Source: an uncultured Clostridia bacterium (GTDB taxonomy: Bacteria; Bacillota; Clostridia; Oscillospirales; Oscillospiraceae). Taken from it: 59,056 bases of DNA. The notes beneath the pieces are model-generated. The model was not told the origin of the DNA. It did no database searches and was given only the letters and a program-made list of their open reading frames with translations. The stretch is from contig CAMHEN010000001.1 in NCBI GenBank assembly GCA_946184165.1, positions 1-59,056 of the forward strand, given 5' to 3'. The translations under genes were made by a program, and so were the position numbers. This document shows, one piece after another, positions 5,595-51,976 of the stretch (the stretch's first letter is position 1; every line of letters starts with the position of its first letter).

Positions 5595-5607
5595 GACGGT
5601 TTGTTCC

Positions 5608-31304: not shown

Positions 31305-31460
31305 CGCTGATTGATAGAGGCGCGGTGTTCATCAGTACCGTCCGGCAAGGGCAGGCAGCCGCCGGAGAGAAAGGGATCATCGCCGAAGAATCGTCGCCCT
31401 GCCTGGAGCGCCGGTTCTGGGCCGCACGAGAAAATTGTGCGGACTGTCACAAGTCTTTGT
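31305..31460 (+). promoter_or_regulatory. Lysine riboswitch (L-box) aptamer
   Basis: Compared from memory with the B. subtilis lysC leader, the blocks are collinear: GATAGAGGCGCG vs GAUAGAGGUGCGAA; AGTA; GAGAGAAAGGGATCATCGCCGAAG vs GAAAGGGGAGCGUCGCCGAAG; CTGGAGCGCC; GGACTGTCACAAG vs GGCUGUCAAGAA. Confidence 0.75.
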
Positions 31461-31510
31461 GGAGCGCTATCGAAACACCGGAGAGGATTATTCCTCATAC
31501 CCGATTTTTC

Positions 31511-31539
31511 ATGGACCGCTGACAAAGCGGTTCATTTTT
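31511..31539 (+). terminator. Riboswitch expression-platform terminator
   Basis: ATGGACCGC-TGACAAA-GCGGTTCAT stem followed by TTTT, about 65 nt upstream of the SBP start. Confidence 0.65.
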
Positions 31540-31603
31540 GTATCATCCCTCACCGGCGGGGAAGATTGACCGGGGAACCGAAACGGTTCAGAAAGGATCT
31601 GTC

Positions 31604-32470
31604 ATGAGGAGAATTCTTGCTGTTGCCCTGTGTGCGCTGATGATGCTGGGTCTGTCCGCCGCCGCCTTTGCCGACGTACCGAGCGGCGTGGAGGACGGGG
31701 TCCTCACTATCGCGATGGAATGTGCCTACGCCCCCTACAACTGGACCCAGTCCGATGACTCCAACGGCGCCGTCCCCATTGCAAATGTTGAAGGCTCCTA
31801 TGCAAACGGCTACGACGTCATGATTGCAAAGAAGATCTGCGAGGCCAACGGCTGGCAGCTTGAGGTCCTCCAGTCCGACTGGGACTCCCTGGTACCCGGC
31901 GTACAGACCGGCACCTTTGACGCGGTCATTGCCGGCCAGTCCATGACGGCCGAGCGTGCCGAGCAGGTCGACTTCGCCGGCCCCTACTTCTACGCTACCA
32001 TCGTCTGTCTCACCACCGCAGACAGCCGCTTTGCCAATGCCCAGAGTCTTGCCGATCTCTCCGGCGGCTCCTGCACCGCGCAGCTTGCAACCATCTGGTA
32101 CGATAACTGCCTGCCTCAGATCCAGGGCGCGAACATCCTGCCTGCGGCCGAGACCGCCCCTGCCATGCTGATGGCTCTCATCACCGGCAATGTGGACTTT
32201 GTCTGCACCGACATGCCCACCGCCCAGGGCGCCGTTAATTCCTACAAGGACCAGCAGGAGCTCGTAATCCTCGACTTCTCCGGCACCGACGGCGACTTTG
32301 AATTCACCGAGGAAGAGCGCGCTGAGAACGTGAACATCGGCGTCTCCATGATGAAGGGCAACACCGTCCTGCGCGAGGCTGTCGACAGCGTTCTCTCCCA
32401 GATGACGGTTGAGGATTTCAACGATCTGATGGCCCAGGCGATTGCTATCGCCCCCACCAGCGAGGAATGA
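31604..32470 (+). CDS. Amino-acid ABC transporter substrate-binding protein (family 3), probable lysine uptake
   Basis: Signal peptide MRRILAVALCALMMLGLSAAAFA. PBP type-2 body (FDAVIAGQSMTAERAEQVDFAGPY). Sits downstream of the L-box. Confidence 0.85.
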   Translation: MRRILAVALCALMMLGLSAAAFADVPSGVEDGVLTIAMECAYAPYNWTQSDDSNGAVPIANVEGSYANGYDVMIAKKICEANGWQLEVLQSDWDSLVPGVQTGTFDAVIAGQSMTAERAEQVDFAGPYFYATIVCLTTADSRFANAQSLADLSGGSCTAQLATIWYDNCLPQIQGANILPAAETAPAMLMALITGNVDFVCTDMPTAQGAVNSYKDQQELVILDFSGTDGDFEFTEEERAENVNIGVSMMKGNTVLREAVDSVLSQMTVEDFNDLMAQAIAIAPTSEE

Positions 32471-32574
32471 TCGTAAATCAGTAATCCCGCAAGAAATCAG
32501 GATTAAGCCTCGGGCTGCCACCCGATGCTTAATCCTGTAAAAGAATATAAATAAATATATAAGGAGCAGACCGA

Positions 32575-33525
32575 ATGAACAAGTTTTCGCAGCTCGGTTT
32601 GGACATTGTAAAGCTCTGGGGCAAATACGGAAACTCCTATCTCCTGGGCGTGAAGAATACGTTGATCCTGGCCCTGGTGGGCACGGTGCTCGGCTGTGTG
32701 ATCGGCTTTCTCTGCGGCGTCCTGAACACGATCCCCTATACCAGGAACGACCCGCCCCTCAAGCGCTTCTTCCTACGCCTGATCCGAATTTTGATCCGGA
32801 TCTATGTGGAGGTCTTCCGCGGCACCCCGATGGTGCTGCAGGCGGTGTTCTTCTATTACGGCCTGCCCTATTTCTCCAATAACAGCCTCCGGTTTTCGAG
32901 CGTCTGGGCGGCGGCTATCGTGGTCGTCTCCATCAACACCGGCGCATACATGGCGGAATCCGTGCGCGGCGGCATCATTTCTGTGGACCCTGGCCAGACC
33001 GAGGGCGCCAAGGCAATCGGCATGACCCACGTGCAGACCATGAGCTATGTGATCCTGCCCCAGGCGCTGCGCAACATCATGCCTCAGATCGGGAACAACT
33101 TCATCATTAACGTGAAGGACACCTCTGTCATGTTCATCATAGGCTTTCCGGATTTCTTCTCGGCGCACCGGGCAGCGGTGGGCGCAAGCTATCTCTATTT
33201 TCCATCGGCTACGGTGGAAATGGCGGGCTATCTCACCATGACGCTGGTGGCCTCTTTCCTCCTGCGTTGGATGGAGAAGAAGATGGATGGCAGCTCCAGC
33301 TATGAGCTCGTGCAGGTCGATCCCCTTACCATGACGGCCGGCACTTACAGCTTCCCGGATCACGCCACACCCTTTGACGAGCGCAACCCCGAAGCAGTCA
33401 AGAGCATGCAGCGCGAGGCTCTGCGTCGTCAGGTCGAGAGGGAAGAGGCAGAGCGTCTCGGCAAGCGTGCGGAGACAAGACGCGACAGCGAAACGATGGC
33501 AGGCAGAAAGGAGGCGGACAGATGA
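32575..33525 (+). CDS. Amino-acid ABC transporter permease (His/Glu/Gln/Arg/opine family) with a roughly 90-aa hydrophilic C-terminal tail
   Basis: EAA-like loop ([28 protein letters not shown]). AAGGAG SD. Confidence 0.88.
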
Positions 33526-34259
33526 GCGAAACAATTCTTCAAATTAACCACCTGTCCAAATCCTTCGGCAGCAATCTTGTTCTGCGGGATATCGACTTCA
33601 CAGTGGATAAGGGCGACGTCATCAGCGTCATCGGCGCCTCCGGCTCCGGAAAATCCACGCTTCTCCGATGCATCAATCTGCTGGAGACCCCGACCTCCGG
33701 CGAGATTCTATACCACGGCAAAAACATTCTCGCCCATGGGTCAAACCCCGCACAGTACCGCGCCCATGTGGGTATGGTGTTCCAGTCTTTCAACCTCTTC
33801 AACAACATGACGGTGCTGGAAAACTGTATTACGGGCCAGGTGCACGTCCTTAAAAGAAGCCGCAATGATGCCGAGAAGCATGCTATGGAGTTTCTCGAAA
33901 AGGTCGGTATGGCCCCCTATATCAACGCCAGGCCCCGGCAGATCTCCGGCGGTCAGAAGCAGCGTGTGGCCATTGCCCGCGCCCTCGCCATGGACCCGGA
34001 GGTTCTGCTCTTTGACGAACCTACCTCCGCCCTCGATCCCGAGATGGTGGGGGAAGTCCTCCAGGTCATGCGAAGACTCGCTGAGACAGGCATTACGATG
34101 CTCGTCGTGACACATGAGATGGCCTTTGCCCGGGACGTGAGCCGCCGGGTAGTCTACATGAACCAGGGCGTTATCTGTGAAGAGGGCAGCCCCGATGAGA
34201 TCTTTGGCAGCCCGAAGAAGCCGGAGACGGCCGAATTCCTCACTCGCTTTCGCGGATAA
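33522..34259 (+). CDS. Amino-acid ABC transporter ATP-binding protein (GlnQ-like)
   Basis: [35 protein letters not shown]. Confidence 0.93.
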
Positions 34260-36474: not shown

Positions 36475-36797
36475 TGCTTCCGTAACCGGATCGCGATGCG
36501 ATCCTCCGCTCCTTTCCGATAGACGTCCGCTCGACTGCGGCGTCTTTTTCCTGCAGAGATCATGTTCATTTTATCACAGCAGCGGATGGAAGACAAGCGA
36601 CGAAAGACGGCGGCCCTTCGGCGGAGAGACGAAGAACAATCCGGCATGTGCAGCTTGTTATGACTTGCGGCAGGCGAAAAATTTTTGTATAATAAAGGAA
36701 ATCCCAACGTCATAAGTATCCACCGGCATCATGTTCTTCGGAAATAAATATTTGCAGAAAGAAGCATACGGGAACCGTATACAAAAGGAGAATGGAA

Positions 36798-37337
36798 ATG
36801 AGCAAAAAAATCCTGATCATATCCGCAAGTCCGCGGAAAAACAGCAACTCAGAAGCCCTGGCGCGGGCCTTTGCAGAGGGCGCGGAAGCCGCGGGGCATG
36901 AGGTGGACTTTGTCTCCCTGCGCGGCAGGACGGTGAACTTCTGCCGCGGCTGCTTTGCCTGCCAGGAAAAGCTGCGCTGCGTGATTCATGACGACGCGGA
37001 CACGATCTGTCAAAAGGCACTGACTGCAGACGTTCTGGTTTTTGCCACGCCCATCTATTACTATGAAATGTCGGGGCAGCTCAAGACGCTGCTGGATCGG
37101 CTCAACCCGCTCTTTCCCAGCGACTATGCCTTCCGGGATGTCTATCTGATGACCTCTGCTGCGGAGGACGAGGCGAGTGTTCCCGAGCGCGCCGTCAGCG
37201 GCGTGGAGGGCTGGATCGAATGCTTTGAGCGGGCGAGACTTGCCGGTACGGTCTTTATGGGCGGTGTGACCGAAGCGGGGGAGAACCCGGAGCATCCCGC
37301 GTTGGATCTGGCGCGGCAAATGGGGCAGCGCGCATGA
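36798..37337 (+). CDS. Flavodoxin-like NAD(P)H-dependent FMN reductase family protein
   Basis: KILIISASPRKNSNSEAL..., CRGCFAC, VFATPIYYYEMSGQLKTLLDR. The track ORF starts at 36792; ATG 36798 has better SD spacing. Confidence 0.8.
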   Translation: MSKKILIISASPRKNSNSEALARAFAEGAEAAGHEVDFVSLRGRTVNFCRGCFACQEKLRCVIHDDADTICQKALTADVLVFATPIYYYEMSGQLKTLLDRLNPLFPSDYAFRDVYLMTSAAEDEASVPERAVSGVEGWIECFERARLAGTVFMGGVTEAGENPEHPALDLARQMGQRA

Positions 37338-37516
37338 AAGCCGTAAAGCTGGTCCCCGCGCTGATGCTCGCCCTGCTTTCGCTCACAGGGTGCGGATCCG
37401 CAGGGCGGATCCGGTCTGTCTCCGGCACCGGGGCTGAAACAAAAACGAAGCAGAAAACGAGGAGAAAGCAGATGAGCCGAGCAGAACGGATAAGTCCCTC
37501 TCCGCGCCAAATATGA
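37334..37516 (+). CDS. Small putative lipoprotein (60 aa), basic tail
   Basis: MKAVKLVPALMLALLSLTGC has a signal peptide and lipobox. The ATG overlaps the upstream stop (ATGA). The K/R-rich tail is low complexity, so this could be spurious. Confidence 0.4.
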   Translation: MKAVKLVPALMLALLSLTGCGSAGRIRSVSGTGAETKTKQKTRRKQMSRAERISPSPRQI

Positions 37517-37524
37517 AAGCGGCT

Positions 37525-37570
37525 GAAAAAAAGCCCGGCGGCTGTTTACACAGCCGCCGGGTCATTTTAT
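37525..37570. terminator. Bidirectional rho-independent terminator
   Basis: AAAAAAAGCCCGGCGGCTG-loop-CAGCCGCCGGGTCATTTT lies between convergent genes. Confidence 0.85.
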
Positions 37571-38976
37571 GCAACGACACGGATCACGTCAAACGCCTCG
37601 TTTCCCTCTAATACCCGGCGGGCTTGGCCGAGATTGTGACAGATGACGCATTTCCGCCCGTCAAGATCAAAGGTCTCGGGCTCGGCGTCAAAGCTCCACA
37701 TCGCCTTGTCCAGGAGCCTGCCGAACTTTCCGGATGCCCCGGGCAGACCGAGAGACGCAAAAACCGCTGTGCGTTTCGGATTTGGTTCGGAGCCTGTGCG
37801 GATCATGATGCGGGAAAGCTCCCTGGGGTTGACCGCAATGTCTACGCAGCCAGTCTTTTCGCACTCAGAGGCGTCGTTGCCGACAGCGCCGAAAGCAAAG
37901 CGTTTGTCGGCCCCGGCCGCCTTGCCAAAGACGGCGATAGGGGAGTCATAGAACAGAAAGCTGTCCTTCTTTTCCGGGAAGTTATTTTCCAGAAAGGCCT
38001 TTGCCGCAAAGCTGTTTGTCAGGATAACAGATTTGCCTGATTTCAGCTTCTCACCCAGCAGCGCCTCCGCCTGGGCTTTCGCCGCATCTTCGGCCTCGTG
38101 CATATCATACACCGTGTCCACGCCGATCTTTTTGAGTGCACCTGCGATCTCAAAGAGGGTCACGCTGCCCGCTTTCAGCTTGAGCACACGCTCAAGCTCC
38201 GGGATGAGATCCATAGAGACCGCCGCAGCGGTGGTCATGCCGTCCTTGTGGGCACAGTACACCAGCTCGTCCTTGTGCTCCCTGGCATAGATCGCGCCGG
38301 TGGGGCAGAACTCCACACAGCGCCCGCAGCCGATGCAGTCGCTCTCGCACATGGCTTTTCCAAAGGCAGGACCGATGGTGACTTCGCAGCCTCTGCCGGA
38401 GGCGGCCAGATTGTGCACCGTCTGAACCTTGCCGCAGATGTCCACACAGCGCCTGCACTTGATGCATTTGTTGGGATTGCGGACAATAGCGGTGGTGGCG
38501 TCCACGGGATAGGTATTGTGCTTCTGGGCAAAGGGCAGCACGTCCACCTTGTACTCCCGGGCCAGGGCCTGGAGATCGCAGAAGCCGTCCTTCACACAGT
38601 CGCAGAAGAAGCACATTTCGCAGAACTTCGGGTCGAGATCCTCACACTTCGAGCTCCCGATGCGAAGGCAGTGGTGGCAGTCCACCGCGTGATTACTCAG
38701 CAGCAGCTCTAAAGTCAGCTTGCGGGAGGCGCGCACGGCCTCGGTATCGGTACGGACCACCATGCCCTCGCGCACCTTGGAGGCGCAGGCGTGCTGGAAG
38801 GTCCGCGCCCCCTCCACCTCCACCACGCACATGCGGCAGGAGGCCCGCGGATCCAGCTCTTTCAGAAAGCAGAGTGTGGGGATATGGATGCCGTTTGCCT
38901 GAGCTGCATCCAGGATCGTGGAACCGGCAGGCACGGAGAGGGCCTTGCCGTCCATGGTGATATTCACGTTTGCCAT
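37567..38976 (-). CDS. [FeFe]-hydrogenase-like (HylA/NuoG-like) iron-sulfur protein lacking H-cluster ligands
   Basis: N-terminal 2Fe-2S domain (CFLKELDPRASCRMCVVEVEG), a His-ligated 4Fe-4S site (HAVDCHHCLRIGSSKC) and two ferredoxin 4Fe-4S motifs (CIKCRRCVDIC, CIGCGRCVEFCP). The following domain is collinear with the hydrogenase large-subunit C-domain, but TSCCPGW is replaced by LTNSFAAK and MPC by VGN, and the protein ends before the CxxGC motif. Confidence 0.8.
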   Translation of the reverse strand: MANVNITMDGKALSVPAGSTILDAAQANGIHIPTLCFLKELDPRASCRMCVVEVEGARTFQHACASKVREGMVVRTDTEAVRASRKLTLELLLSNHAVDCHHCLRIGSSKCEDLDPKFCEMCFFCDCVKDGFCDLQALAREYKVDVLPFAQKHNTYPVDATTAIVRNPNKCIKCRRCVDICGKVQTVHNLAASGRGCEVTIGPAFGKAMCESDCIGCGRCVEFCPTGAIYAREHKDELVYCAHKDGMTTAAAVSMDLIPELERVLKLKAGSVTLFEIAGALKKIGVDTVYDMHEAEDAAKAQAEALLGEKLKSGKSVILTNSFAAKAFLENNFPEKKDSFLFYDSPIAVFGKAAGADKRFAFGAVGNDASECEKTGCVDIAVNPRELSRIMIRTGSEPNPKRTAVFASLGLPGASGKFGRLLDKAMWSFDAEPETFDLDGRKCVICHNLGQARRVLEGNEAFDVIRVVA

Positions 38977-38978
38977 AT

Positions 38979-40211
38979 TCACGTCTCCTTTCCGAGCTTT
39001 GCGTCAAAGTCAGCGGGGAAGAGCTTCAGCGCGCTCATGAACGCGGTGGTCGCGCTCTGTCCCAGTGGACAGAAGCAGGTCTTCTGCATGTAGCCGGAGA
39101 GCGTTTTGATGAGCTCTATATCGGTCCTCGTGCCGTTCCCGCAGGCGATCTTCTCCATGATCTCTGCAATGCGCATGGTACCCTCGCGGCAGGGGGTGCA
39201 CTTGCCGCAGGATTCGTGCTTGAAGAACTTCGCGATCTCCAGCAGGATGTCCACGATATTTCTTGTCTCATCGATCACAAACACCGCCCCGGAGCCAAGC
39301 GATGCGCCGATTGAGCGAATGGAGTCAAAGTCGATGGGCGTGTCCAGCGCATCCGGCGTAACAAAGCCGCAGGAGGAGCCGCCGAGCTGAATAGCCTTGA
39401 GCTTCCTGCCGTCTGCGATACCGCCGCCGAAGCCCTCCACCACATCACGAAGGGTGGCGTTGGTCGGGACCTCGACGCAGACCCTGTTCTTCACGTCGCC
39501 GGAGAGACACATGAGCTTGGTGCCGGGAAACTTTTCAGCACCGATGGAGCCGAACCATTCCGCGCCCCTGTTCACAATCTCAGGGATGACAGCGAAGGTC
39601 TCCACATTGTTGACGACGGTGGGATACCCGTGCAGGCCCTTGACCGCCATGGAGGGCGGCTTCAGTCTGGGCTCACCGCGCAGACCCTCGAGGGAATTCA
39701 CGATCGCCGTGCCCTCGCCGCAGATATAGGCGCCCGCGCCGGAGACCACCTTGATCGTCACATCACCGGTCAGGCCCTTTTCCTCTGCGGTCTTCACCGC
39801 CTTGCGCAGGAGCCTGATGGACTTCTCATACTCGCCGCGCACATAGATGAAGCAGTCCTTCGCGCCCACGGCCCAGGCACCGATGAGGATGCCCTCGATC
39901 ACCGTGTGGGGGTCGCCCTCCATGATGACGCGGTCCTTGAAGGTGCCGGGCTCTCCCTCATCGGCGTTGCAGACGATGTACTTGGTTTCTTCTTTACTTG
40001 CAAAGGCGCTGCTCCACTTTTTGCCTGTGGAGAAGGCGGCGCCGCCTCTGCCGCGCAGACGAGAGGTCTCCTCAATGGTCCGGATCAGTTCGCCCCTGTC
40101 CATGGTGCGGGCCTTTTTCAGCGCCTCATACCCCCCTGCTTTGAGATAAGCGTCGATGGAATCGGGTTTGATGTGTCCGACATTCCGCAGGGCAATCCGT
40201 ACTTCCTCCAT
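38979..40211 (-). CDS. NuoF-like NAD(P)H-binding FMN/4Fe-4S flavoprotein subunit
   Basis: GRGGAAFSTGKKW (FMN), CNADEGEPGTFKDR, and a 4Fe-4S site ESCGKCTPCREG...CPLGQSA. 410 aa with no extra ferredoxin domains. Confidence 0.88.
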   Translation of the reverse strand: MEEVRIALRNVGHIKPDSIDAYLKAGGYEALKKARTMDRGELIRTIEETSRLRGRGGAAFSTGKKWSSAFASKEETKYIVCNADEGEPGTFKDRVIMEGDPHTVIEGILIGAWAVGAKDCFIYVRGEYEKSIRLLRKAVKTAEEKGLTGDVTIKVVSGAGAYICGEGTAIVNSLEGLRGEPRLKPPSMAVKGLHGYPTVVNNVETFAVIPEIVNRGAEWFGSIGAEKFPGTKLMCLSGDVKNRVCVEVPTNATLRDVVEGFGGGIADGRKLKAIQLGGSSCGFVTPDALDTPIDFDSIRSIGASLGSGAVFVIDETRNIVDILLEIAKFFKHESCGKCTPCREGTMRIAEIMEKIACGNGTRTDIELIKTLSGYMQKTCFCPLGQSATTAFMSALKLFPADFDAKLGKET

Positions 40212-40651
40212 CACTTGAGCCCTCCCAGCAGTTCCGCCGCATTTGCGGGGTCATCATTCGTATACAGCTTCCCGTTTACGAGCATATTCGGCGCTGCCTG
40301 ACACTGGCCGAGACACTCCACCCAGTCCAGACTGCATTCCTCGCTGCTCTCACCGATCTTCAAACCGGTTGCCGCTTCCAGCGCCTCGACCAGCGCCGCG
40401 TTGCCCGCACTGTGACAGGCCGTGCCGCGGCAGACACGGATCTCCTTTTTCGCAGGCGGAGAGAAGCGCAGCATGGAATAAAAGCTCGCCGTGTCGTAAA
40501 GCTCGGCCGCGCTCTTTCCCTCGTGGGCGGCAAGCGCACGCAGGCCAGCCTCGCTCACATATCCGTCCCGCTTCTGAATAGCCAGCAGCGCGTCCAGAAG
40601 GCCGCCGTCTTTCAGCGCCTTTTTTATAAGCGTTTCGTAGAAATAGGCCAT
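40211..40651 (-). CDS. NuoE-like thioredoxin-fold 2Fe-2S subunit
   Basis: VCRGTACH...ECLGQCQAAP cluster motif. ATG 40651 lies 2 nt after the upstream stop, behind GAGGAGG. Confidence 0.85.
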   Translation of the reverse strand: MAYFYETLIKKALKDGGLLDALLAIQKRDGYVSEAGLRALAAHEGKSAAELYDTASFYSMLRFSPPAKKEIRVCRGTACHSAGNAALVEALEAATGLKIGESSEECSLDWVECLGQCQAAPNMLVNGKLYTNDDPANAAELLGGLK

Positions 40652-40653
40652 GC

Positions 40654-42957
40654 TCACACCTCCTCAATCTTCTCGACCCGGCAGGGCGTATAGCGCCACT
40701 TGGCATTTCCGGTCAGCTCGTCCAGATCCCGGTGATCCGTGAGATAATTGATGTGCATCCCGTGGGCCCTGCCCTCATAGCTGAGGCCGAAGTGGTGCGG
40801 GATCATACAGTAGCCGGGAGCAGTCTGCCAGGTGATCTCCACCGGAACGGTGATCGATCCCTTCTTTGTGGTCACGCGCACGGTCTCACCGTCGGTCATT
40901 CCGAACGCCGCCGCATCCTCCGGGTTCATCGCCAGACGGTAGGGGTCACGGAAGCGATAGGTGCCGGGATTGCGCATGGAGGTATTCATGCCGCTGTCAG
41001 AGTGACGACCTGCCGAGAGGATCATGTTGCAGCCGTCCTTGAGACGAAGCGCCTCGGCCTCGTGTGCCGGTGTGATGACCCGGAGTGCTTTGTCGATCTC
41101 CTCGCACCAGAGATGGAACTTCTTGTCCTTATGCCTGATGTGCCGCTCCATCAGGTGCTCGACGTCACTGTAGGCGATCACCGCGCCCTCCGGGTGCCGA
41201 TCCACTTTCTCAAAGGCGGCATCCATGGTGCAGAACTCGTTGAGCATCGGCATCCGCGCGAGAAACGGGTGCCGCTTTGCATCCGGTTTTACCGCCATAA
41301 CGGCGCGCTCCGGCAGCTTGGAAATCAGCAGTGCCGCCCAGCACATGGCGTGTCCCGCAGAACCCATGGCCTTGCCCAGCGTGAGGGCGATGATGATCGC
41401 CGCCTGGTCGAAATACTTCATGCCGCCCAAGGCGATCCAGCCCACGACCTTCATGAAATACTTGATGCGGTCACCGGTGCGCACAGCCTCTTCAGCCGCG
41501 TCATACAGATATTGCGGGAGTTTTGGGATAAGGCCCATCGCCTCGGCAAGCTCCGCGTAAACCATGGCGTCCTCGCGAGCCTCGCCGGGGGCCTTGACAA
41601 CCGCCCGGCGGCTGAAATACATGATCTCGGGATAGTGGAAGGCGAACACGTCAAAGTCGCCGCCCACCTCATAGGCGCTGGGAGTCGGCAGCACATAGTC
41701 CGCGATACGGGTGGTTTCGGTCTCCACACAGTCCATCGCGACAAAGAGCTCCAGATGGCGCAGAGCCTCCTCCATCTTTTGGGAGTCTGGATAGCTGCGC
41801 AGGGGATTGGACATATTGCAGAAGGCCATGCGGATACGGTCTTCATTATCGCCCAGCACCTCGTCCGGCAGCGCCCCCTCGGGGTACATGCCCGCAACGG
41901 GAAAGCGATTGGTCACCGGCATGCGCCAGACATTCGGATCATACTCGTCGGAATAGTCGAGCGTGATGATGCGGACGGGCGGAATATTACCGCCGGGAAC
42001 CAGAAGCGTGCCGCACACGGCCATCAGGATAAGACACAGGTAGCTCGAAAGCGTGGACTGCCGCCCGAAGTACAGGCCCAGATCCTGGTGCATGCCCCAC
42101 TTCTTCGTGGTGAGGATGCGGGCGAAATCCTCAGCCTGCTGCCGCGGGATACCGCAGACCTTGAGAGCGCCGTCGATATCAAAATCCAGAAACCAGGCGC
42201 GCGCATGGGCCCAGTCCTTGCAGCAGCGATACAGGAAGTCACGGTTCTGCCAGCCCTTTTCAAGGATCAGGGAGATGAGCGCCCGGAGGAACAGCGCGTC
42301 CGAGCCGGGCCGGGGCTTTATGTGCATGTCCGCCATGCGGGCGGTTTCCGAGAGGCGCGGATCGACCGCAATGACCATTTTGTCCGGATCGCGGGAGAAT
42401 TCCCGGATCATGGGTCTCGCATTCGGAAGCTGATGGGAGACATAGGAGTTGGAGCCCCAGAAAATGAGCACCTCGCAGTTTTTGTCGTCCGGCTCCAGCG
42501 GGTGGAACTGATCGCCGAATATGCGCCCGCAGCTCCAGAAGATACCCATGAACTCCACGCCGATGGGGTTAAAAAAATACTGGGAGCCGATGGCTTTCAA
42601 AAAGGGCTGTGCCGTAGCGGCGGCAGCGCCGGTCGCGCCGCCGCCGCCCCCGATGATTGCGGCCGAACGCGGTCCGTGTGCCTTCAGGATAGCGTTGGCC
42701 TTCTCCGCAATCTCTGCGTAGGCCTGATCCCAGGAGATGCGCTCGTAATGATCGCCCACTCGCTTTTTGGGGTACAGGATGCGCTCGTGGTTTTCCACAA
42801 AATATTTGGCGCTTCTGCCTTTGCGGCAGCAGTAGCACGCACTGCTGGGGCTGTCGGGATCGGGCCGGACATTGATGATCCGGTTGTCCTCAATCTCCAT
42901 CTCCAGCCCGCAGGTCATGGCACAGAGGTTACACAGGGTCTTTTTCCATTCACTCAT
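40654..42957 (-). CDS. Cytoplasmic molybdopterin (bis-MGD, MopB superfamily) oxidoreductase, substrate unknown
   Basis: N-terminal 4Fe-4S motif CNLCAMTCG...CYCCRKG. MopB body (VLIFWGSNSY, IAVDPRLSETA). C-terminal Molydop-binding beta-barrel (AAAFGMTDGETVRVTTKKGSITVPVEIT). No signal or Tat motif and no in-frame TGA. ATG 42957 lies behind GGAGGA. Confidence 0.85.
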   Translation of the reverse strand: MSEWKKTLCNLCAMTCGLEMEIEDNRIINVRPDPDSPSSACYCCRKGRSAKYFVENHERILYPKKRVGDHYERISWDQAYAEIAEKANAILKAHGPRSAAIIGGGGGATGAAAATAQPFLKAIGSQYFFNPIGVEFMGIFWSCGRIFGDQFHPLEPDDKNCEVLIFWGSNSYVSHQLPNARPMIREFSRDPDKMVIAVDPRLSETARMADMHIKPRPGSDALFLRALISLILEKGWQNRDFLYRCCKDWAHARAWFLDFDIDGALKVCGIPRQQAEDFARILTTKKWGMHQDLGLYFGRQSTLSSYLCLILMAVCGTLLVPGGNIPPVRIITLDYSDEYDPNVWRMPVTNRFPVAGMYPEGALPDEVLGDNEDRIRMAFCNMSNPLRSYPDSQKMEEALRHLELFVAMDCVETETTRIADYVLPTPSAYEVGGDFDVFAFHYPEIMYFSRRAVVKAPGEAREDAMVYAELAEAMGLIPKLPQYLYDAAEEAVRTGDRIKYFMKVVGWIALGGMKYFDQAAIIIALTLGKAMGSAGHAMCWAALLISKLPERAVMAVKPDAKRHPFLARMPMLNEFCTMDAAFEKVDRHPEGAVIAYSDVEHLMERHIRHKDKKFHLWCEEIDKALRVITPAHEAEALRLKDGCNMILSAGRHSDSGMNTSMRNPGTYRFRDPYRLAMNPEDAAAFGMTDGETVRVTTKKGSITVPVEITWQTAPGYCMIPHHFGLSYEGRAHGMHINYLTDHRDLDELTGNAKWRYTPCRVEKIEEV

Positions 42958-43040
42958 GCTCAATCCTCCACATCTTTCAGGGGCGTCTGTCTTAGCTGAC
43001 GATCCGGGGGCATCCCCTTTGTGAACACTTCACAACTTGT

Positions 43041-43069
43041 ATGATACGTATTCACCGCGGACCTGTCAA
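43041..43069 (-). promoter_or_regulatory. Sigma-A-type promoter of the molybdoenzyme operon (TTGACA-17-TATCAT on minus strand)
   Basis: Plus-strand tgtcaa at 43064-43069 and atgata at 43041-43046. A small palindrome GTGAA-N3-TTCAC at 43021-43033 lies just downstream. Confidence 0.55.
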
Positions 43070-43170: not shown

Positions 43171-44379
43171 CTAAAGAAGACAGGGCGGCAGACGCAGTAC
43201 CCGGATCTGATCGCCTCTCTCAAGCGGCGCAGTGTTCCCCGGAACGATGCCGATCAGCTCACAGCCGGCAAAAGAGGCGATGTTCCCGTTTCCGCGGCCT
43301 TGATGCTCCTGAAACCAGGCCTGTCCGTCCTCGATCAGCAAGTGCCCGCGCAGCATGCGGACGGCGCTGCTCGTCTTCGGCATGCCTTCCCATATGGGAA
43401 GCTGCCAAAAAACATTCTCCTCCTGTGCCCCTGCCATTGCGAACAGCGCAGGGCGCAGCACGGTTAATAGACTCATCAGCGCGGCTGCCGGATTCCCGGA
43501 GAGACTGATCAGGAGCTTGCCTTTCCAGCGAGAGGCCAGAAGCGCGCCGCCCGGCTTCATATTGACCTTCCAGAAGAGCCGCTCGCTGCCGAGAGCCGAC
43601 GCGGTACTTGACGCAAAATCATAGTCTCCCACGGAGGCGCCCCCTGTCGTGAGCACAAGATCGGCAGGTCCTTCCAGTGATCTGCGCACAGCGCACAGCA
43701 TCGCCTCTCTCTCATCCGGAACGATCGGCTGACGCTCTGAGATTAAGCCCATTTTTTCCAAATAGGCCGAGAGCACGTAGCTGCTGCTGTTATAGATCCC
43801 GTGAGGGCTGCAGGACTCTCCGGGCTCGTGCAGCTCGTTTCCCGTCGCGATCAGAGAGACGACGGGCTTTCGAAACACTTCGACCTTTGCGATCCCCTGG
43901 GAGGCAAGCAGCCCCAGATGTCCCGGCGTCAACCGGGTTCCGGCCCTTAAAAGAAGCTGGTCGACGCGGAGATCTTCACCCTGCCGTATGATGTTGGTCC
44001 CATGTCTGACCTTCTGCTCAATACGGATTATCATTCCTTCAGCTTGAACATCCTCCTGCTTGATGACCGCATCTGCGCCCGGTGGAATGGGGGCACCGGT
44101 AAAGATACGCAGCGCTTCGCCTTCGGCGAGCGCTGGCAGCGTACGGCAGCCTGCCGCCGCTGTTCCGATGACCTGCAGCGTCCCGGGCACGTCTTCGGAG
44201 CGACAGGCATAGCCGTCGAAGGGACTTTTGTCGAAGGGGGGGATCGCCGTATGTGCAAAGCAGTCTGCAGCAAGGATCCGCCCGAGAGAATGTGCGACGG
44301 AAACGCTCTCCGCCGTCGGCCTCATGACCTGACGCAGCAAAAGCTCGGCGGCGGCTTCCCATTCCATATACGCCTGCAT
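43171..44379 (-). CDS. moeA: Molybdopterin molybdenumtransferase
   Basis: Typical MoeA domains (SPFDGYA, IFTGAPIPPGADAV, TTGGASVGDYD, KPGGAL). The ATG overlaps the upstream stop (TGATG). Confidence 0.9.
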   Translation of the reverse strand: MQAYMEWEAAAELLLRQVMRPTAESVSVAHSLGRILAADCFAHTAIPPFDKSPFDGYACRSEDVPGTLQVIGTAAAGCRTLPALAEGEALRIFTGAPIPPGADAVIKQEDVQAEGMIIRIEQKVRHGTNIIRQGEDLRVDQLLLRAGTRLTPGHLGLLASQGIAKVEVFRKPVVSLIATGNELHEPGESCSPHGIYNSSSYVLSAYLEKMGLISERQPIVPDEREAMLCAVRRSLEGPADLVLTTGGASVGDYDFASSTASALGSERLFWKVNMKPGGALLASRWKGKLLISLSGNPAAALMSLLTVLRPALFAMAGAQEENVFWQLPIWEGMPKTSSAVRMLRGHLLIEDGQAWFQEHQGRGNGNIASFAGCELIGIVPGNTAPLERGDQIRVLRLPPCLL

Positions 44380-44921
44380 CAACGCTCACGCTCCCTGCAG
44401 AGCTTATCCCACTGCGAAACAATGGGAAGGAGCTCTGTATAGATTTCTTCAAAATATTCCGGCTGCATTCGGATCACGCGCGCCGACGGGTGCGCTTTCA
44501 CACGGCGCAGGAAGTCTGTCTCCATCCCTTCCCGCACAGCGGCAAGGACCGGAAGATTCCCGTCAAGCTTCTCCAAAACAGTGCGGCAGAAGACTTCCGC
44601 GTCGCTTTCCATGAATCCGATCTCATCCATTACAATGATCCCGTCCGTGCGTGCGTTGAGAAAAGCGACGCCGAGCGTGTCAAAAACCTCCGTGTATATA
44701 ATCCGATCCCGGGTGTTGCAGTCCGCCGCATGATTCTGCGCCGACGGCTCTAACGGCTCTGTCCCGTAGGGAAATAAATAAATCTCGTGATAGCCGTCAG
44801 GGCGTGTGGTCGTGGTTCTTGTTTCATATCCGAAGGCAGGCGTCCTGGTATTCGCAAGCAGGCGGCGAATCATGGCGCTTCTGCCGCTCCTTCGCCGACC
44901 GCAGAGTAAAATATGCTCCAT
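44379..44921 (-). CDS. NTPase_1/THEP1-like P-loop protein with variant Walker A
   Basis: Walker B and downstream region IIVMDEIGFMESDAEVFCRTVLEKLDGNLPVLAAV, as in the THEP1 family. Walker A reads GRRRSGRS (Arg in place of the canonical Lys). ATG 44921 lies behind GGGGGA; the track ORF extends to 44942. Confidence 0.6.
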   Translation of the reverse strand: MEHILLCGRRRSGRSAMIRRLLANTRTPAFGYETRTTTTRPDGYHEIYLFPYGTEPLEPSAQNHAADCNTRDRIIYTEVFDTLGVAFLNARTDGIIVMDEIGFMESDAEVFCRTVLEKLDGNLPVLAAVREGMETDFLRRVKAHPSARVIRMQPEYFEEIYTELLPIVSQWDKLCRERER

Positions 44922-44974
44922 CCCGTTTCCCCCTATCATCAATACTCTGATGCATGTCCTCTGGATAATAAAGT

Positions 44975-45642: not shown

Positions 45643-48600
45643 TCAGTGCTCAAGCTCTCTGTCCTGCTGCTCCTTTTTCATCTGTGCGTCGATGATGCTG
45701 ATACCCATGATAATTCTGTTGCCGCCGGGCATGCGCGTGATCTTCATATTGACATACATCGGGCTGCCCGTATCGATCAGACGGTAGGTGGTTGTGAAGA
45801 CGCCCTGCGCGTCCAGCTCACGGATGACACTTTCCTTTGAAAACAGGTTCAGAAAGGGCGTCCGGTCCTCTTCATAAATGCGGGTCATCGTATCGCGATT
45901 CACAGCGCCGAAGAAATCTGTACCGCGCCGTATCACAGACAGTTCCTCTCCGCCGATCCGGGAAGAGTATTCAATAAACTGGTCCGTATCCAGATCTATA
46001 ACATAAATGTTATAGTAGTCCGAAGCCAGAGCCCTCGCGATATCCGCATACGAGGTGTCCGCATCAGGCTCTGAGACGGAAAAAACCACAATGGCAAGCG
46101 CCGCCGCACCGGTTACCGTATCCTTGCTTACGGGGTTAATGGCTGCATGTAGGGCAGAGCCGTTCGGCAGATATGTGTCGAGAAAGGCACGGTTCCAGTC
46201 GGCGCAGCACTGGCGCGCCTTGTCCATGAAGATCGCGCCCGCTCCATCAGGTCTGCCCGAGCAGCCGCAGGGGCTTGCGGAAAGATCACAATCGAAGTAT
46301 TTCTTCATGAACTCACGATATGCCCGGTTCGTGCGCACGTAGCAGACCTGATCCTCGCGCAGCTCCATGATTCCGGCAGGCAGTGTGTCAAAATAGTCCC
46401 GGCTCTCGTTTTCTGTGTCGGAAATCAAGGTGAGGTCATAGAGGTTCACCCGGCCGATCGCGGTGAAATAATCTGTTTCGGCGGGGTCTTCGAAACCGAT
46501 CTGGACGCCTTTCCGGTAGCGCTCCAGGATATCCTCAAAGGGGATAGGCCTGGAATAATAATAACCCTGCTGCTTGCTGCAGCCGATCTCCTGCAGAAAC
46601 TCCACCTCTTCTGCGGTCTCCACGCCTTCGCAGACCGTGTCGATCCCCAGGTCGACAGCCATACGCACCAGGTCCGTCAGGATAATCTTGCTCTCCTTTC
46701 CCTCGTAGAAACGCTTCATAAAGCGCATATCGAATTTGAGAAGATCAAAGTGGATATCCTGCAGCACATCCAGGGAGGAATAGCCACTGCCGAAGTCATC
46801 CATCCACACCTGGAAGCCCAGAGCATGGAAGCGGCGAACCTGTTCCTTCATAAAATCAAAATTGCTGCCGATGATGCTCTCGGTGATTTCGATGGTCAGC
46901 CTGTCGTGGGCGATGCCCGCGGCGTCGATGCGCTTTCGGATTTCCTCAACGATATCACATGCGTCAAAGTCGGCTCTGGACAAATTCAGGGAATGGGGCA
47001 CGACACGCAAGCCGGCCTTTTGCTGCGCCTGCATTTTTTCGAGGATCCGATCAAGCACATAGAGGTCCAGCTTGTATATGAGTCTCGCCTTTTCAAGAAT
47101 CGGGATAAAATCATCCGGCGGCAGCATCCCGCGCACCGGGTCGATCCAGCGGGAAAGCGCCTCCTCGTCAGACACGCGCCCATTGACAGAACGGACTATG
47201 GGCTGGTAATAGACCTTGATCCAGTTTTCCGACAGCGCCTGATCCAGATGGTTTATAATATACCGGACGCCGTCCAGCTGGTGAAGCATGTTGTCGTCAA
47301 AATAGTACCAGTCGGACTCAAAGGAGCTTCTGTGCTTATCACAGGCGTATTTGGCACGGTCACAGGCAATGCTCACGCTGACCTGTTCCATGCTGTCCCG
47401 GTAGATGCCTGCCCGCATCGGCAGGGAATTGCCGCCGTTTGCTGCTTTGCAGTCCCGGAATACAGCGCTCAGCTTTTCCTCAAGGTTTTCCTCACCGCAC
47501 ACAACGGCAAAATGGTCTTCGCTGAAGCGGCACATGCACTGCTCGCCGAAGTGGTCGGCCAGGATCCGCCCAACTTCGCACAGGAGCTTGTCCCCTTCCG
47601 CAAAGCCGTACTGGCGGTTATAATACTTCATGCCTACGAGGTCAAAAAACAGCATGGCGGAGGAGCCCCCGCTTTCGGCAAGTCTCTTCCGTTCCGCCTT
47701 TGCCAGCTTGAAGAAATACCGCATGTTCGGCAGACCCGTCAGCATGTCCGTGTTGACCCGTCGGCTAAGATCCGTGATATAGTCCTTGATCTGGTCGCGC
47801 ATGCGGATAAATGCCTGGGTGAGCTGTCCAATCTCGTCCTTGCTCCGGTAATTCAGCGCCACGTCGTAATCCGCGTTGGCCAGCCGCTGTGAGGCGGCCG
47901 TAAGGCTTAAAAGCGGGAATGTGATGAAACGCATGACCGATCTGATGATCACGGCAAGGATGACCATGACCGCCAGTGTAATGAAAACGATGTTGCGCGC
48001 AAGGTGCATCCAGGAGGCATTGATCTCACGCAGAGGGGCGGTGATGATCAGCTTCAAGCCGTTTCGCAAGGTGGTAAAGGCCATCTGCCGCCGTGCCCCG
48101 TCTATGTCGTAGCGGATCAGGGTATCGCCGCTGTCCTTGCTGTTGAACAGTTCCTCGGGAATCGACAGCTTTGCCGACTCCAGTACTTTCTCCTGTGTCA
48201 GATACGGATGATACAGGAGCGTCCCTTCCTCGTCGCAGAGGATTGCAAAGCCCGTGTCATAGACCCGGACGGAGCTGACGTAGGCGGTGATGGTATCCAA
48301 CGGGATATCCATGCCGAGCACGCCGATCAGCGTACCGGTAGAGTAGATCGGCACGAGATAAGAGCACAGCTTCATATCGCCGAGGGGTGGGTATTCATAC
48401 AGCCCCACCCAGGAAGGGCGGCCGCGTTTGACCGTTGTAAAGTACCAGCTGTTGTATGCAGCATTCTCCGGATCAAACATACCGGCGTCCAGAGGCTCCT
48501 GCTCCACGAAGCCCGCCTTCCCGACTCTGGAATAGTAAAAGCCATGCTGTGTCTTGCTGATCTCAGGATTGATGCAGTAGTAATAGGTAATGATGCCGTT

Positions 48601-48987
48601 GGTATGGCTCGCGGCGCTCTCGAAGGTGCGCAGGACCCGTTCACAGTGTTCTGCGATATAGGCGTCCAGCCTGACTGTCTGCTCTCTTGTCCGCTCGTTC
48701 TGTTTGGCATAGGTGCCCGCGGCGCCGCACTCCACCAGCATGACGCTGTCCAGCGAGTCGACCGCCATGTTGGCAGCAAGATTCACGGACTGCTCGATGC
48801 TTTCGAAATACTCGTCCAGCGTGTTTTTCGTATTCTCCCCGATCAGGCGCATCATTTCCACCGAGCTCCGGTCCGTCTCGGTCTGGATCGGCGGGTAACT
48901 CGCGGCAAAGACGGCGAGCATGGCGACAAGAACCGCGGCGACCGCGATCGCCGTGATCTTAAAGCGAATCGAATTCATCTTCATCAT
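45643..48987 (-). CDS. Membrane sensor: dCache-HAMP-GGDEF(degenerate)-EAL-PAS-like c-di-GMP phosphodiesterase
   Basis: TM1, a roughly 280-aa extracytoplasmic Cache-like region, TM2, and a HAMP domain (KDEIGQLTQAFIRMRDQI). The GGDEF domain A-site reads RFSEDHF. The EAL domain is intact (EEALSRW, NLS, EITES, DDFGSGYSSL, EGVET, QGYYYSRP). About 300 aa of extra C-terminal domains follow. The start is ATG 48987 (2 nt after the SBP stop) or TTG 48993. Confidence 0.88.
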   Translation of the reverse strand: MMKMNSIRFKITAIAVAAVLVAMLAVFAASYPPIQTETDRSSVEMMRLIGENTKNTLDEYFESIEQSVNLAANMAVDSLDSVMLVECGAAGTYAKQNERTREQTVRLDAYIAEHCERVLRTFESAASHTNGIITYYYCINPEISKTQHGFYYSRVGKAGFVEQEPLDAGMFDPENAAYNSWYFTTVKRGRPSWVGLYEYPPLGDMKLCSYLVPIYSTGTLIGVLGMDIPLDTITAYVSSVRVYDTGFAILCDEEGTLLYHPYLTQEKVLESAKLSIPEELFNSKDSGDTLIRYDIDGARRQMAFTTLRNGLKLIITAPLREINASWMHLARNIVFITLAVMVILAVIIRSVMRFITFPLLSLTAASQRLANADYDVALNYRSKDEIGQLTQAFIRMRDQIKDYITDLSRRVNTDMLTGLPNMRYFFKLAKAERKRLAESGGSSAMLFFDLVGMKYYNRQYGFAEGDKLLCEVGRILADHFGEQCMCRFSEDHFAVVCGEENLEEKLSAVFRDCKAANGGNSLPMRAGIYRDSMEQVSVSIACDRAKYACDKHRSSFESDWYYFDDNMLHQLDGVRYIINHLDQALSENWIKVYYQPIVRSVNGRVSDEEALSRWIDPVRGMLPPDDFIPILEKARLIYKLDLYVLDRILEKMQAQQKAGLRVVPHSLNLSRADFDACDIVEEIRKRIDAAGIAHDRLTIEITESIIGSNFDFMKEQVRRFHALGFQVWMDDFGSGYSSLDVLQDIHFDLLKFDMRFMKRFYEGKESKIILTDLVRMAVDLGIDTVCEGVETAEEVEFLQEIGCSKQQGYYYSRPIPFEDILERYRKGVQIGFEDPAETDYFTAIGRVNLYDLTLISDTENESRDYFDTLPAGIMELREDQVCYVRTNRAYREFMKKYFDCDLSASPCGCSGRPDGAGAIFMDKARQCCADWNRAFLDTYLPNGSALHAAINPVSKDTVTGAAALAIVVFSVSEPDADTSYADIARALASDYYNIYVIDLDTDQFIEYSSRIGGEELSVIRRGTDFFGAVNRDTMTRIYEEDRTPFLNLFSKESVIRELDAQGVFTTTYRLIDTGSPMYVNMKITRMPGGNRIIMGISIIDAQMKKEQQDRELEH

Positions 48988-48989
48988 GC

Positions 48990-50636: not shown

Positions 50637-51409
50637 GGCTGCATGCTCCTTATAAGCCTTGGTGACTGCGGCATACGGTAGCGTACCGCCCTGTATCGTC
50701 CGGCAGAGCGGAAAAGTGCGGCAAGACAGGCGGAACTTGACGAATCTGCACAACATGTTTGAAAAATATAATCGAACTATTAGCTTATATTATATAGTAA
50801 TACACAAACAACTTCAAGATATAAAAAACTTTTAGCTATGTGTCGGCTTCGATGCGTAATATTCTTTTTAATTAAAGAAGACTTTTCATTGAAAAGGTGC
50901 CGCTTAACGCGTCACCCCTCTGCGCCAAAAAGAAAAGAGGACGTCTCATAAAGTCTCCGACACGCTGTTGAAATCAGACGTTGTCTGCTTTTATACCGGA
51001 CAGGCATAAAACGCATTAAAACGTTTGTAGTTGCGTAGAGTGTCTGCATGAGACGTCTTTTGTACATTTTGGCACAAAACTGGCAGCGCGGGAGCACGAT
51101 GACTCACCGAAAAGGAGGCATTCTATCGGTGAACGGTATTCACGGGAGAACAGTGTGACCGCGCTATTTTGACCGTCCCGGCCCCAGACCGCCGAGAATA
51201 TAGTCATGCAGAGGGTTTGAATGTCGATGTATATTCAGAGGAAGCGAATGCCGACCAGATTTCTCCCAGCAGAGAAGCAGGACCCCCTTCAGGGAAAAAC
51301 GGAAGCGCAGGTTTCCTGCGGTATGCCTTCACGTTCCAATTCTAATGCGGCCCTTTCGATCGACGCTGCGATATTTTTAAGGCACAGGCATCCTGCAAAT
51401 TTCATGCGT

Positions 51410-51976
51410 TTATCTCCACAGCCTCTTTGCTTTTTCAAAGTCCTCCGGTGTATTGCAATTGAGCAGAAGATCCACGTCGCCAGTGTATTCGACTCTTTTT
51501 ACGCCGGGATTGCTTGACAATCTTCGCATGGACCGGGAGTCTGACAGAATAAGCACTTCTGCGCGTTCATGCAGGCTCGAGTCGTACACGGCCAGCAGAG
51601 GTTCGATCAAACCGTCGTGAGCGAGTACGGTAGCAACACCTTCATGCGCCTCCGTGAGCTGCTCAAGCACCTCAGCCGGAACCAGCGGGGTATCCACGCT
51701 CACCACAAGGCAGGCGGTTTTTTGCGCCGCCATCAGACAGGCGTGTACACCGCTGAGCGGCCCTTTGCCCGGGTAGACATCCGCAACGGCGCGCGTTCCG
51801 TCTATTGTTTTGTCATAACCCGAAACCATGATGTCCTCAATCCCGAGCTCCCGGAGCTTCTGCACCTGGATCTCCAGAAGCGTCCGGTCACCGAGCTTCA
51901 GCTCGGCCTTTTTGATACCCATTCTTTTGCTTCCGCCGCCCGCCAGCACGACACCTGAAATGTCATTTGCATTCAT
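51410..51976 (-). CDS. mobA: Molybdenum cofactor guanylyltransferase
   Basis: GVVLAGGGSKRMG..K, and DGTRAVADVYPGKGPLSGVHA matching the D.....GPL.G motif. 188 aa. Confidence 0.85.
   Translation of the reverse strand: MNANDISGVVLAGGGSKRMGIKKAELKLGDRTLLEIQVQKLRELGIEDIMVSGYDKTIDGTRAVADVYPGKGPLSGVHACLMAAQKTACLVVSVDTPLVPAEVLEQLTEAHEGVATVLAHDGLIEPLLAVYDSSLHERAEVLILSDSRSMRRLSSNPGVKRVEYTGDVDLLLNCNTPEDFEKAKRLWR

Follow-up and report, generated by a model that had tools for sequence, protein, structure and literature searches.

The closest described counterpart of the locus reported here is HylABC-FdhF2 of Clostridium (Gottschalkia) acidurici, a bifurcating NAD+/ferredoxin formate dehydrogenase (PMC5861303, PMC6085437). 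We analyzed a four-gene operon in a 59,056-nt stretch of DNA from an uncultured Clostridia bacterium of the Oscillospiraceae (assembly GCA_946184165.1, contig CAMHEN010000001.1, positions 1 to 59,056; hereafter, the window). The operon encodes a molybdopterin-type catalytic subunit (MopB), a NuoE-like 2Fe-2S protein, a NuoF-like flavoprotein, and a HydA-like (HylA-like) protein, here also called HylA. A first-pass annotation, made from the sequence alone, had remarked that this layout recalls Hyl(CBA)-FdhF2, and the comparison holds: the same four subunit types are present, including a HydA homolog without H-cluster motifs, both systems are soluble and come from Firmicutes, and in both the HylABC-like module seems to evolve apart from the catalytic subunit (PMC6085437). 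Unlike FdhF2, however, the window MopB has Glu-Phe in place of selenocysteine (Sec)-His, no conserved catalytic Arg, and a formate dehydrogenase (FDH) score below cut-off, while its NuoF-like partner is without the extra Fe-S domains of the Hyl system and NuoE/NuoF are dispensable in most relatives. We consider it fairly likely that the operon encodes a cytoplasmic, four-subunit, non-bifurcating NADH-dependent reductase with a Hyl-like layout and a molybdenum or tungsten bis(pyranopterin guanine dinucleotide) (Mo/W-bisPGD) center.

Parts of the same wiring are found in other described systems. In HydAB of Syntrophus aciditrophicus and Hyd1ABC of Syntrophomonas wolfei, a NuoF-type beta subunit with reduced Fe-S content feeds a HydA-type subunit without ferredoxin (PMC7311640), as proposed here; unlike these non-bifurcating NADH-dependent [FeFe]-hydrogenases, the window HydA-like protein has no H-cluster and the catalytic site would lie on a separate MopB. 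The FdsABG/FdhA-B enzymes of Rhodobacter capsulatus, Cupriavidus necator, and Methylorubrum extorquens run from NuoE/NuoF through NuoG-type clusters and the FS0 cluster to Mo/W-bisPGD, again the order proposed here, and Fds-type structures were among the top structural matches (7vw6 ranked first, and 6tg9 was also found). There, MopB carries the NuoG-like clusters as a fusion and the ligand pair is Cys-His, whereas the window has a separate HydA-derived protein and Glu-Phe. Finally, StnABC (Sporomusa-type Nfn; 8oh5, 9bov, and 9n5u) joins NuoE/NuoF-like subunits to an H-cluster-less HydA-like region with the CxxCxC...C motif also seen in HylA (PMC7483475). StnC retains only a MopB remnant (matching residues 5–112) together with a GltD-type NADPH module, whereas the window MopB is full length with intact cofactor motifs. 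We class the operon as a Hyl-like NADH:acceptor complex, probably non-bifurcating, around a Glu-type MopB clade.

We confirmed all four open reading frames (ORFs) on the minus strand, where the first-pass annotation had placed them (Table 1), and the other elements that it had described were recovered as well. The stop/start junctions, which it had put at -1 to +2 nt, read as TGAGCATG between MopB and NuoE (+2 nt), TGATG between NuoE and NuoF (an overlap of 1 nt), and TGAATATG between NuoF and HylA (+2 nt). A Shine-Dalgarno sequence of the reported GGAGG type precedes each of the four ATG codons (GGAGGA, GAGGAGG, GGGAGGG, and AAGGAGA). The ORF listing starts MopB at a TTG codon (42963), but the ATG at 42957, which has a Shine-Dalgarno sequence, is the likelier start. 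The operon also has its own TTGACA-17-TATCAT promoter, and the strong terminator is bidirectional as described, since a mirror hairpin on the plus strand can serve a convergent plus-strand unit.

MopB is a member of the Mo/W-bisPGD (DMSO reductase) superfamily. The Pfam domains Molybdop_Fe4S4, Molybdopterin, and Molydop_binding were all detected above cut-off, and an AlphaFold2 model of the subunit (predicted local distance difference test score 86, predicted template modeling score 0.89) resembled FDH, periplasmic nitrate reductase (Nap), acetylene hydratase (Ahy), arsenate reductase (Arr), polysulfide reductase (Psr), and DMSO reductase alike in Foldseek searches, with TM scores of 0.65–0.75 and 14–19% identity. 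The model also carries a family-specific helical insertion at approximately residues 480–590. The protein begins directly at the FS0 motif, C9-x2-C12-x3-C16, and therefore has no Tat or Sec leader, in line with the first annotation. In an alignment of 24 family members (48–95% identity), the FS0 residues C9, C12, C16, and C43/C44 were invariant together with K46, as were many non-ligand residues near the predicted active site and the molybdopterin guanine dinucleotide (MGD) motifs WGSN, DPRxSETA..AD.HI....GSD, xNP, and D..ETET...ADYVLP, which line up with their equivalents in Escherichia coli FdhF. Binding of a Mo/W-bis-MGD cofactor is predicted, with indirect support from linkage to mobA, moeA, and other molybdenum cofactor (Moco) genes.

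Within this superfamily, we compared MopB with the characterized clades through hidden Markov model (HMM) cut-offs and searches of solved structures. It fell under every curated NCBIfam cut-off: the best match was Fdh-alpha (TIGR01591; 214 against 666.25 bits), and the others included NasC (156.9 against 1100), PhsA (143 against 694), DmsA (108 against 778), and NasA (104.7 against 1000), along with the cofactor-less types QrcB (93.5 against 440) and NuoG (43 against 802). No solved structure was close, and the earlier placement of MopB outside the canonical FDHs stands. An exhaustive HMMER search of 1.84 billion cluster representatives returned full-length relatives whose identity declines gradually between 53% and 29%; ten distant relatives likewise missed all NCBIfam cut-offs. 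The family is common in gut and rumen metagenomes, single clusters at 90% identity contain up to 1847 member sequences, and its hosts include Oscillospiraceae, Lachnospiraceae, Eubacterium, and Clostridium beijerinckii. By these measures, MopB is part of a widespread clade, itself uncharacterized, outside the named families. A preprint on urolithin dehydroxylases was considered as a match for the family but deals with other families.

What sets this clade apart most clearly is the metal-ligand position. HMMER alignments to FdhA (9vap), an F420-dependent FDH (9t1s), FdhF of the hydrogen-dependent CO2 reductase (HDCR; 7qv7), and Ahy (2e7z) all placed MopB E135 on the Sec or Cys ligand, with F136 on the ligand-following His of the three FDH-type chains and on a gap in Ahy. 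MAFFT alignment with E. coli FdhF (U140) and NapA (precursor C179) put E135 in the same column. MopB was reported at the outset to lack the Sec/Cys-His signature of FDHs, and an invariant Glu135-Phe136 pair indeed occupies that column. The Glu is kept in relatives down to approximately 29% identity, in motifs such as GVEFMG, AQEFT, and AQEKTG. Across a larger alignment of 123 sequences counting E. coli FdhF, the ligand column of the 122 family members and relatives held 50 Glu, 68 Asp, 3 Cys, and 1 gap. One MAFFT alignment with FdhF alone gave a shifted register of the ligand loop with compensating gaps; we dropped this in favor of the ungapped register because the four HMMER alignments and two larger MAFFT alignments agree on it and the FG(D/S/N)(Q/G) motif stays aligned.

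Other catalytic residues of the known enzymes are missing too. The counterpart of FdhH Arg333 is P321 in the FdhF alignment and R329 by HMMER alignment, and it is not conserved, R329 being replaced by Cys, Asp, Ser, or Ile within the 24-member family. The column of Ahy Cys141 is occupied by E135, and where Ahy has Asp13 the family has Ala, Val, Gly, or Leu following C12. Compared with the nitrate reductases NasC, NasA, and NarB, the ligand column has Glu rather than Cys and the scores are below cut-off. With E135-F136 at the Sec/Cys ligand position, the chemistry is therefore predicted to be something other than formate, nitrate, or acetylene conversion. The ligand types described for Mo/W-bisPGD enzymes are Sec, Cys, Ser, Asp, or none, and we know of no described class with a glutamate ligand. 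We raise, as a tentative proposal that is well short of probable, that MopB may form a sixth ligand class, in which Glu is ligating or catalytic and which reduces dietary, host, or xenobiotic small molecules in a reaction not yet described. Under the same tentative proposal, the reaction would be cytoplasmic and proceed in Clostridia of the gut and rumen, with electron modules (NuoEF-HylA for NADH, or HylA plus an EFR1 ferredoxin) and tandem paralogs diversifying the substrates, and the enzymes would be a Firmicutes parallel to the respiratory catechol dehydroxylases known from Coriobacteriia.

The partner subunits were then compared with those of known NADH-linked complexes. The NuoE-like protein has the Pfam domain 2Fe-2S_thioredx, and its best solved matches were HydC of T. 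maritima and T. kivui. The NuoF-like protein has only the domains Complex1_51K, SLBB, and NADH_4Fe-4S, and its nuoF_fam score of 463 bits lies just under the equivalog cut-off of 559, which is what one would expect of a NuoF-like protein that is not part of complex I. Its best solved relative was HydB of the bifurcating hydrogenase of T. kivui (8a6t_B), of which it aligns to residues 149–559 of 630; the N-terminal 2Fe-2S domain and the two C-terminal 4Fe-4S domains of HydB are missing. The subunit thus departs from bifurcating HydB/HylB and has the make-up of a non-bifurcating input module, namely a minimal NuoF (an FMN site and one 4Fe-4S cluster) with a NuoE 2Fe-2S partner. The number of Fe-S centers in the beta subunit separates non-bifurcating NADH-dependent from bifurcating enzymes (Losey et al., PMC7311640). 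With the additional Fe-S domains of bifurcating HydB/HylB missing from the NuoF-like protein, simple NADH coupling is likelier, and bifurcation by the complex is unlikely on domain grounds. The first-pass annotation had allowed for an added ferredoxin dependence, which finds no support in this bare 410-aa core (PMC7311640).

The HydA-like subunit has Fer2_4, NuoG-type 4Fe-4S, two Fer4, and partial Fe_hyd_lg_C domains in Pfam. It matches HydA1 of HydABC complexes (E-value 1e-51) over its Fe-S portion and the initial third of the H-domain, and its best NCBIfam match was the group A6 [FeFe]-hydrogenase model, at 258 against a cut-off of 765. The annotated absence of the H-cluster is borne out: the L1 motif TSCCP is replaced by TNSFA, most of 21 homologs have T[ND]x[FY]A there, and none of the 21 has a cysteine at either L1 H-cluster position. 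Nor did the C-terminal half hold any conserved Cys in these homologs. In contrast, the 2Fe-2S ligands, H98/C102/C105, and both CxxCxxCxxxC motifs are invariant among the 21. Since the Fe-S ligands are kept and the H-cluster cysteines are lost, we read this subunit as an electron wire and not a hydrogenase, in keeping with the description of HylA (PMC6085437). An additional five-Cys motif, C121/C124/C127/C129/C135 (C-x2-C-x2-C-x-C-x5-C; 38574-38616, minus strand), is also invariant in the 21 homologs. It is flanked by the His-ligated 4Fe-4S site on one side and the ferredoxin domain on the other, aligns with the CxxCxC...C of StnC-like 9bov_A, and may hold one more cluster.

We infer the electron path, its direction, ligation by Glu, non-bifurcation, and the identity of the metal, and propose the following sequence. 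NAD(H) would react at the FMN of the NuoF-like subunit with its 4Fe-4S cluster, partnered by the NuoE-like protein, whose 2Fe-2S cluster would be off the path. Electrons would then run through the HydA-like subunit, which has no H-cluster, by way of its four or five Fe-S clusters to the FS0 4Fe-4S cluster of MopB, and pass from there to the Mo- or W-bisPGD center and the substrate. The enzyme would serve as an electron sink or a detoxifying reductase for a small oxidized substrate. Relatives would swap NuoE/NuoF for an EFR1-family ferredoxin or have no dedicated partner, giving at least two interchangeable input modules. We prefer the reductase direction because the donors in a fermenter are NADH and reduced ferredoxin, because relatives have a ferredoxin as their alternative partner, and because the residues for formate, the only low-potential donor chemistry of the neighborhood, are missing. 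A candidate soluble NAD(P)H-linked Mo/W-pterin enzyme had been put forward from the outset, and the domains, motifs, lack of family membership, and synteny all support that view.

To place the operon in its family, we examined related loci (numbered with the prefix L). Of 25 related loci, 22 have the HydA-like gene directly after MopB, the other three being truncated contigs, while NuoE/NuoF are present in 6 of the 25 (L001, L002, L004, L017, L020, and L025). The conserved core is therefore MopB plus the HydA-like gene, and NuoE/NuoF is an exchangeable input module. Further away, the order MopB-NuoE-NuoF(406–410 aa)-HylA is also found in a Lachnospiraceae metagenome-assembled genome (MAG), with a MopB of 43% identity and a divergent TetR gene, and in a Eubacterium MAG, with a MopB of 34% identity and TetR downstream. 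Co-conservation, which the first-pass annotation had proposed as a check, is thus borne out: the four-gene order holds in close relatives and at 43% and 34% MopB identity, with NuoE/NuoF patchy among the 25 loci. A different order, NuoF-HylA-MopB, occurs in L025, L034, and C. beijerinckii (L026). Shortened NuoF-like genes stand upstream of HylA-MopB in C. beijerinckii (203 aa; L026:7881-8492) and in L034 (330 aa; L034:567-1559); both products keep the 4Fe-4S domain and have partly or wholly lost the FMN/NADH domain, which suggests an NADH module that is decaying or repurposed.

Loci without NuoEF often carry a divergent TetR gene (14 loci), MobA (14), an ECF-S-like membrane protein with a weak PF09819 match (10), or an EFR1-family ferredoxin (8), a flavodoxin-like protein with two 4Fe-4S clusters (NF038196, 163 bits). 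Examples in relatives of the ECF-S-like, EFR1, and TetR genes are L009:7269-7895, L007:807-1589, and L001:154-780, respectively. Homologs of these three proteins are not encoded in the window. The mobA ortholog adjoins MopB/HylA in its 14 loci, with one 8-nt mobA-MopB overlap, and the C. beijerinckii operon continues into mobA, moeA, moaC, mobB, and moaA. Five loci (L007, L008, L014, L019, and L022) have tandem MopB paralogs with a single downstream HylA, for example L007:1615-3915 and 3966-6260, which are approximately 65% and 62% identical to the window MopB; this suggests substrate diversification. TetR control and paralog expansion in relatives also hint, weakly, at small organic or xenobiotic substrates. 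The MopB of L005, and also that of L029, shares 81% identity with its window counterpart, but the adjacent HylA shares only 41%. HylA identity follows the presence of NuoEF and not MopB identity, so the electron-input module appears to be exchanged independently of the catalytic subunit, echoing the weak co-evolution of FdhF2 and HylABC that Poudel et al. noted (PMC6085437).

Several observations weigh against a non-bifurcating, NADH-dependent reductase. The NuoF-like core is closest to bifurcating HydB proteins, which leaves room for bifurcation, and the NADH coupling would be lineage-specific, since NuoE/NuoF are missing from most related loci. No conserved transporter or pathway gene that hints at a substrate was found among the MopB neighbors, source names for the family are generic ("molybdopterin-dependent oxidoreductase" or similar), and full-text literature searches on the family found nothing. 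The role of E135 as a metal ligand is drawn from sequence alignment, in which one MAFFT run moved the ligand loop by a gap, and the choice of reductase over dehydrogenase is an argument from physiology only. With bifurcation in mind, the complex could be a formate:NAD+/ferredoxin bifurcating formate dehydrogenase like HylABC-FdhF2. The four subunit kinds match (PMC5861303, PMC6085437), FDHs give the best HMM and solved-structure matches of MopB, and the NuoF core and HylA are nearest to bifurcating HydABC subunits. Nevertheless, Glu-Phe replaces Sec/Cys-His, neither candidate column for FdhH Arg333 (P321 or R329) is conserved, the Fdh-alpha score reaches less than a third of its cut-off, and the NuoF does not have the additional Fe-S domains that bifurcating beta subunits carry (PMC7311640), so that we regard a formate dehydrogenase of this type as highly improbable. 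MopB might instead be a cofactor-less scaffold, as in NuoG, QrcB, or part of StnC, within an NADH:ferredoxin or pyridine-nucleotide oxidoreductase that does no Mo chemistry. Consistent with this, a Cys, Sec, or Ser ligand is lacking in MopB, Stn/Nfn-type complexes (9bov, 8oh5, and 9n5u) contain subunits similar to HylA and NuoF, and QrcB is among the weak NCBIfam matches. We give the scaffold little credence: the invariant FS0 and MGD motifs, which align with FdhF, argue against it, as do an intact domain IV with no degenerate or truncated region, the restriction of StnC-like matches to residues 5–112, the many invariant non-ligand residues at the predicted active site, and the physical linkage of mobA, moeA, or a full Moco pathway in many loci.

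Two further alternatives keep the molybdenum chemistry and change the reaction. Clostridial nitrate reductase loci have a cytoplasmic enzyme, an NADH module, and a Moco cluster, and Nar-type oxyanion reductases have an acidic ligand. A nitrate reductase that is soluble, NADH-dependent, and either assimilatory or fermentative (Nas/NarB-like), or some other oxyanion reductase, would fit a cytoplasmic MopB with an NADH module, an adjacent Moco biosynthesis cluster, and an acidic residue at the ligand position, and the top NCBIfam matches include NasC and NasA. These scores nevertheless fall far short of the cut-offs (157 against 1100 and 105 against 1000), a Cys ligand is missing from MopB, the approximately 35 loci examined contained neither a nitrite reductase nor a nitrate/nitrite transporter, and tandem paralogs and TetR regulators suit organic ligands better; an oxyanion reductase is accordingly a poor prospect. 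An acidic residue is likewise found at the metal-ligand position of type II hydroxylating enzymes. That would also suit an oxidative role, in which the enzyme is a hydroxylase or dehydrogenase that oxidizes an organic or inorganic substrate and feeds NAD+ (compare the Asp-ligated enzymes of ethylbenzene dehydrogenase type) or a hydratase like Ahy. Ahy is among the best structural and sequence relatives of MopB, and known complexes can run the NuoEF/HydA-like chain in either direction (PMC5861303). Against an oxidative role, most hydroxylations are poorly served by NAD+ as the acceptor (and by ferredoxin in relatives), the family has neither Cys141 nor Asp13 of Ahy, and a pure hydratase has no need of a five-cluster wire and a flavoprotein. 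We judge it unlikely, and the NADH-dependent reductase remains our preferred reading.

Features of the operon and its Moco-related neighbors are given in Table 1. The first-pass annotation had reported moeA, a P-loop NTPase, and mobA nearby, and all three are present. MobA is needed for the bis-MGD cofactor. The NTPase-moeA pair also adjoins the MopB operon in L003 (5594-6145) and L017 (8267-8800), and the THEP1-like NTPase_1 may stand in for MobB in Moco maturation. Between the moeA/NTPase genes and mobA sits a pair of minus-strand genes, one for a large dCache-HAMP-GGDEF-EAL signaling protein (45643-48993) and one, translationally coupled to it, for a family 5 solute-binding protein (48990-50756). 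The window encodes no second molybdoenzyme. Its remaining genes are housekeeping genes, including uvrB, polA, RNase J, metH, and TRAP and ABC transporters; G+C content is approximately 58%, and the closest relatives are MAGs of uncultured Oscillospiraceae/Clostridia from gut and rumen.

Table 1. Operon genes, predicted control signals, and Moco-related genes in the window
Feature	Position	Strand	Remarks
MopB catalytic subunit	40654..42957	-	767 aa, predicted cytoplasmic; FS0 4Fe-4S and Mo/W-bisPGD motifs
NuoE/HydC-like thioredoxin-fold 2Fe-2S subunit	40211..40651	-	146 aa
NuoF/HydB-core FMN, NAD(H), 4Fe-4S subunit	38979..40211	-	410 aa
HydA-like (HylA-like) electron-transfer subunit	37567..38976	-	469 aa; H-cluster cysteines missing
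Predicted sigma-70-type operon promoter, TTGACA-17-TATCAT	43041..43069	-	11/12 consensus positions
Predicted intrinsic terminator closing the operon	37534..37561	-	12-pair hairpin, 10 G-C, then CTTTTTTT (T7)
Palindrome TTGTGAA-CAC-TTCACAA, candidate operator	43019..43035		Perfect, 17 bp, just downstream of the -10 box
moeA (molybdopterin molybdotransferase)	43171..44382	-	Upstream of the operon; own terminator-like hairpin ahead of the MopB promoter
NTPase_1 (THEP1-like) P-loop gene	44379..44942	-	Overlaps the moeA start by 4 nt
mobA (molybdenum cofactor guanylyltransferase)	51410..51976	-	~8 kb from the operon

The palindrome downstream of the promoter was the one perfect match in a search of the window, against 0.10 expected at up to two mismatches, and no second copy was found in the window. 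A comparable sequence, TGTGAG-AAT-CTCACA, lies upstream of the C. beijerinckii operon. The half-sites are like those of Rex and CRP/FNR operators, but the 7-3-7 spacing is 1 base short of both consensuses, and because of this misfit we keep the palindrome as a candidate operator without assigning a regulator. No Moco riboswitch was found by Rfam in the 5′ untranslated region of the operon; the only match in the window was a lysine riboswitch elsewhere (RF00168, 95.8 bits; 31307-31477, plus strand), with an amino-acid ABC transporter downstream of it (31538-34259; SBP_bac_3 binding protein, permease, and ATPase). On the other side of the operon, the convergent plus-strand unit comprises an FMN reductase gene (36792-37337) and then a 60-aa ORF (37334-37516) that overlaps the FMN reductase stop by 4 nt. 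This small ORF has a lipoprotein signal with the lipobox LSLTGC and ends at the bidirectional terminator that it has in common with the MopB operon.

These findings bear on how such loci are read in anaerobes. The rules used to mine genomes for Hyl-type FDHs (an H-cluster-less HydA, HylBC, and a nearby FDH homolog; PMC6085437) would mislabel operons of this kind, and mislabeled operons would distort the formate, CO2, and electron-bifurcation capacity inferred for anaerobes. The swappable electron-input modules of the family are a clear case of modular redox-enzyme evolution. A soluble, NADH-using complex would offer a tractable route to a new Mo or W reaction, and Glu at the metal-ligand position, if true, would widen the ligand set of these enzymes beyond Sec, Cys, Ser, Asp, and none.

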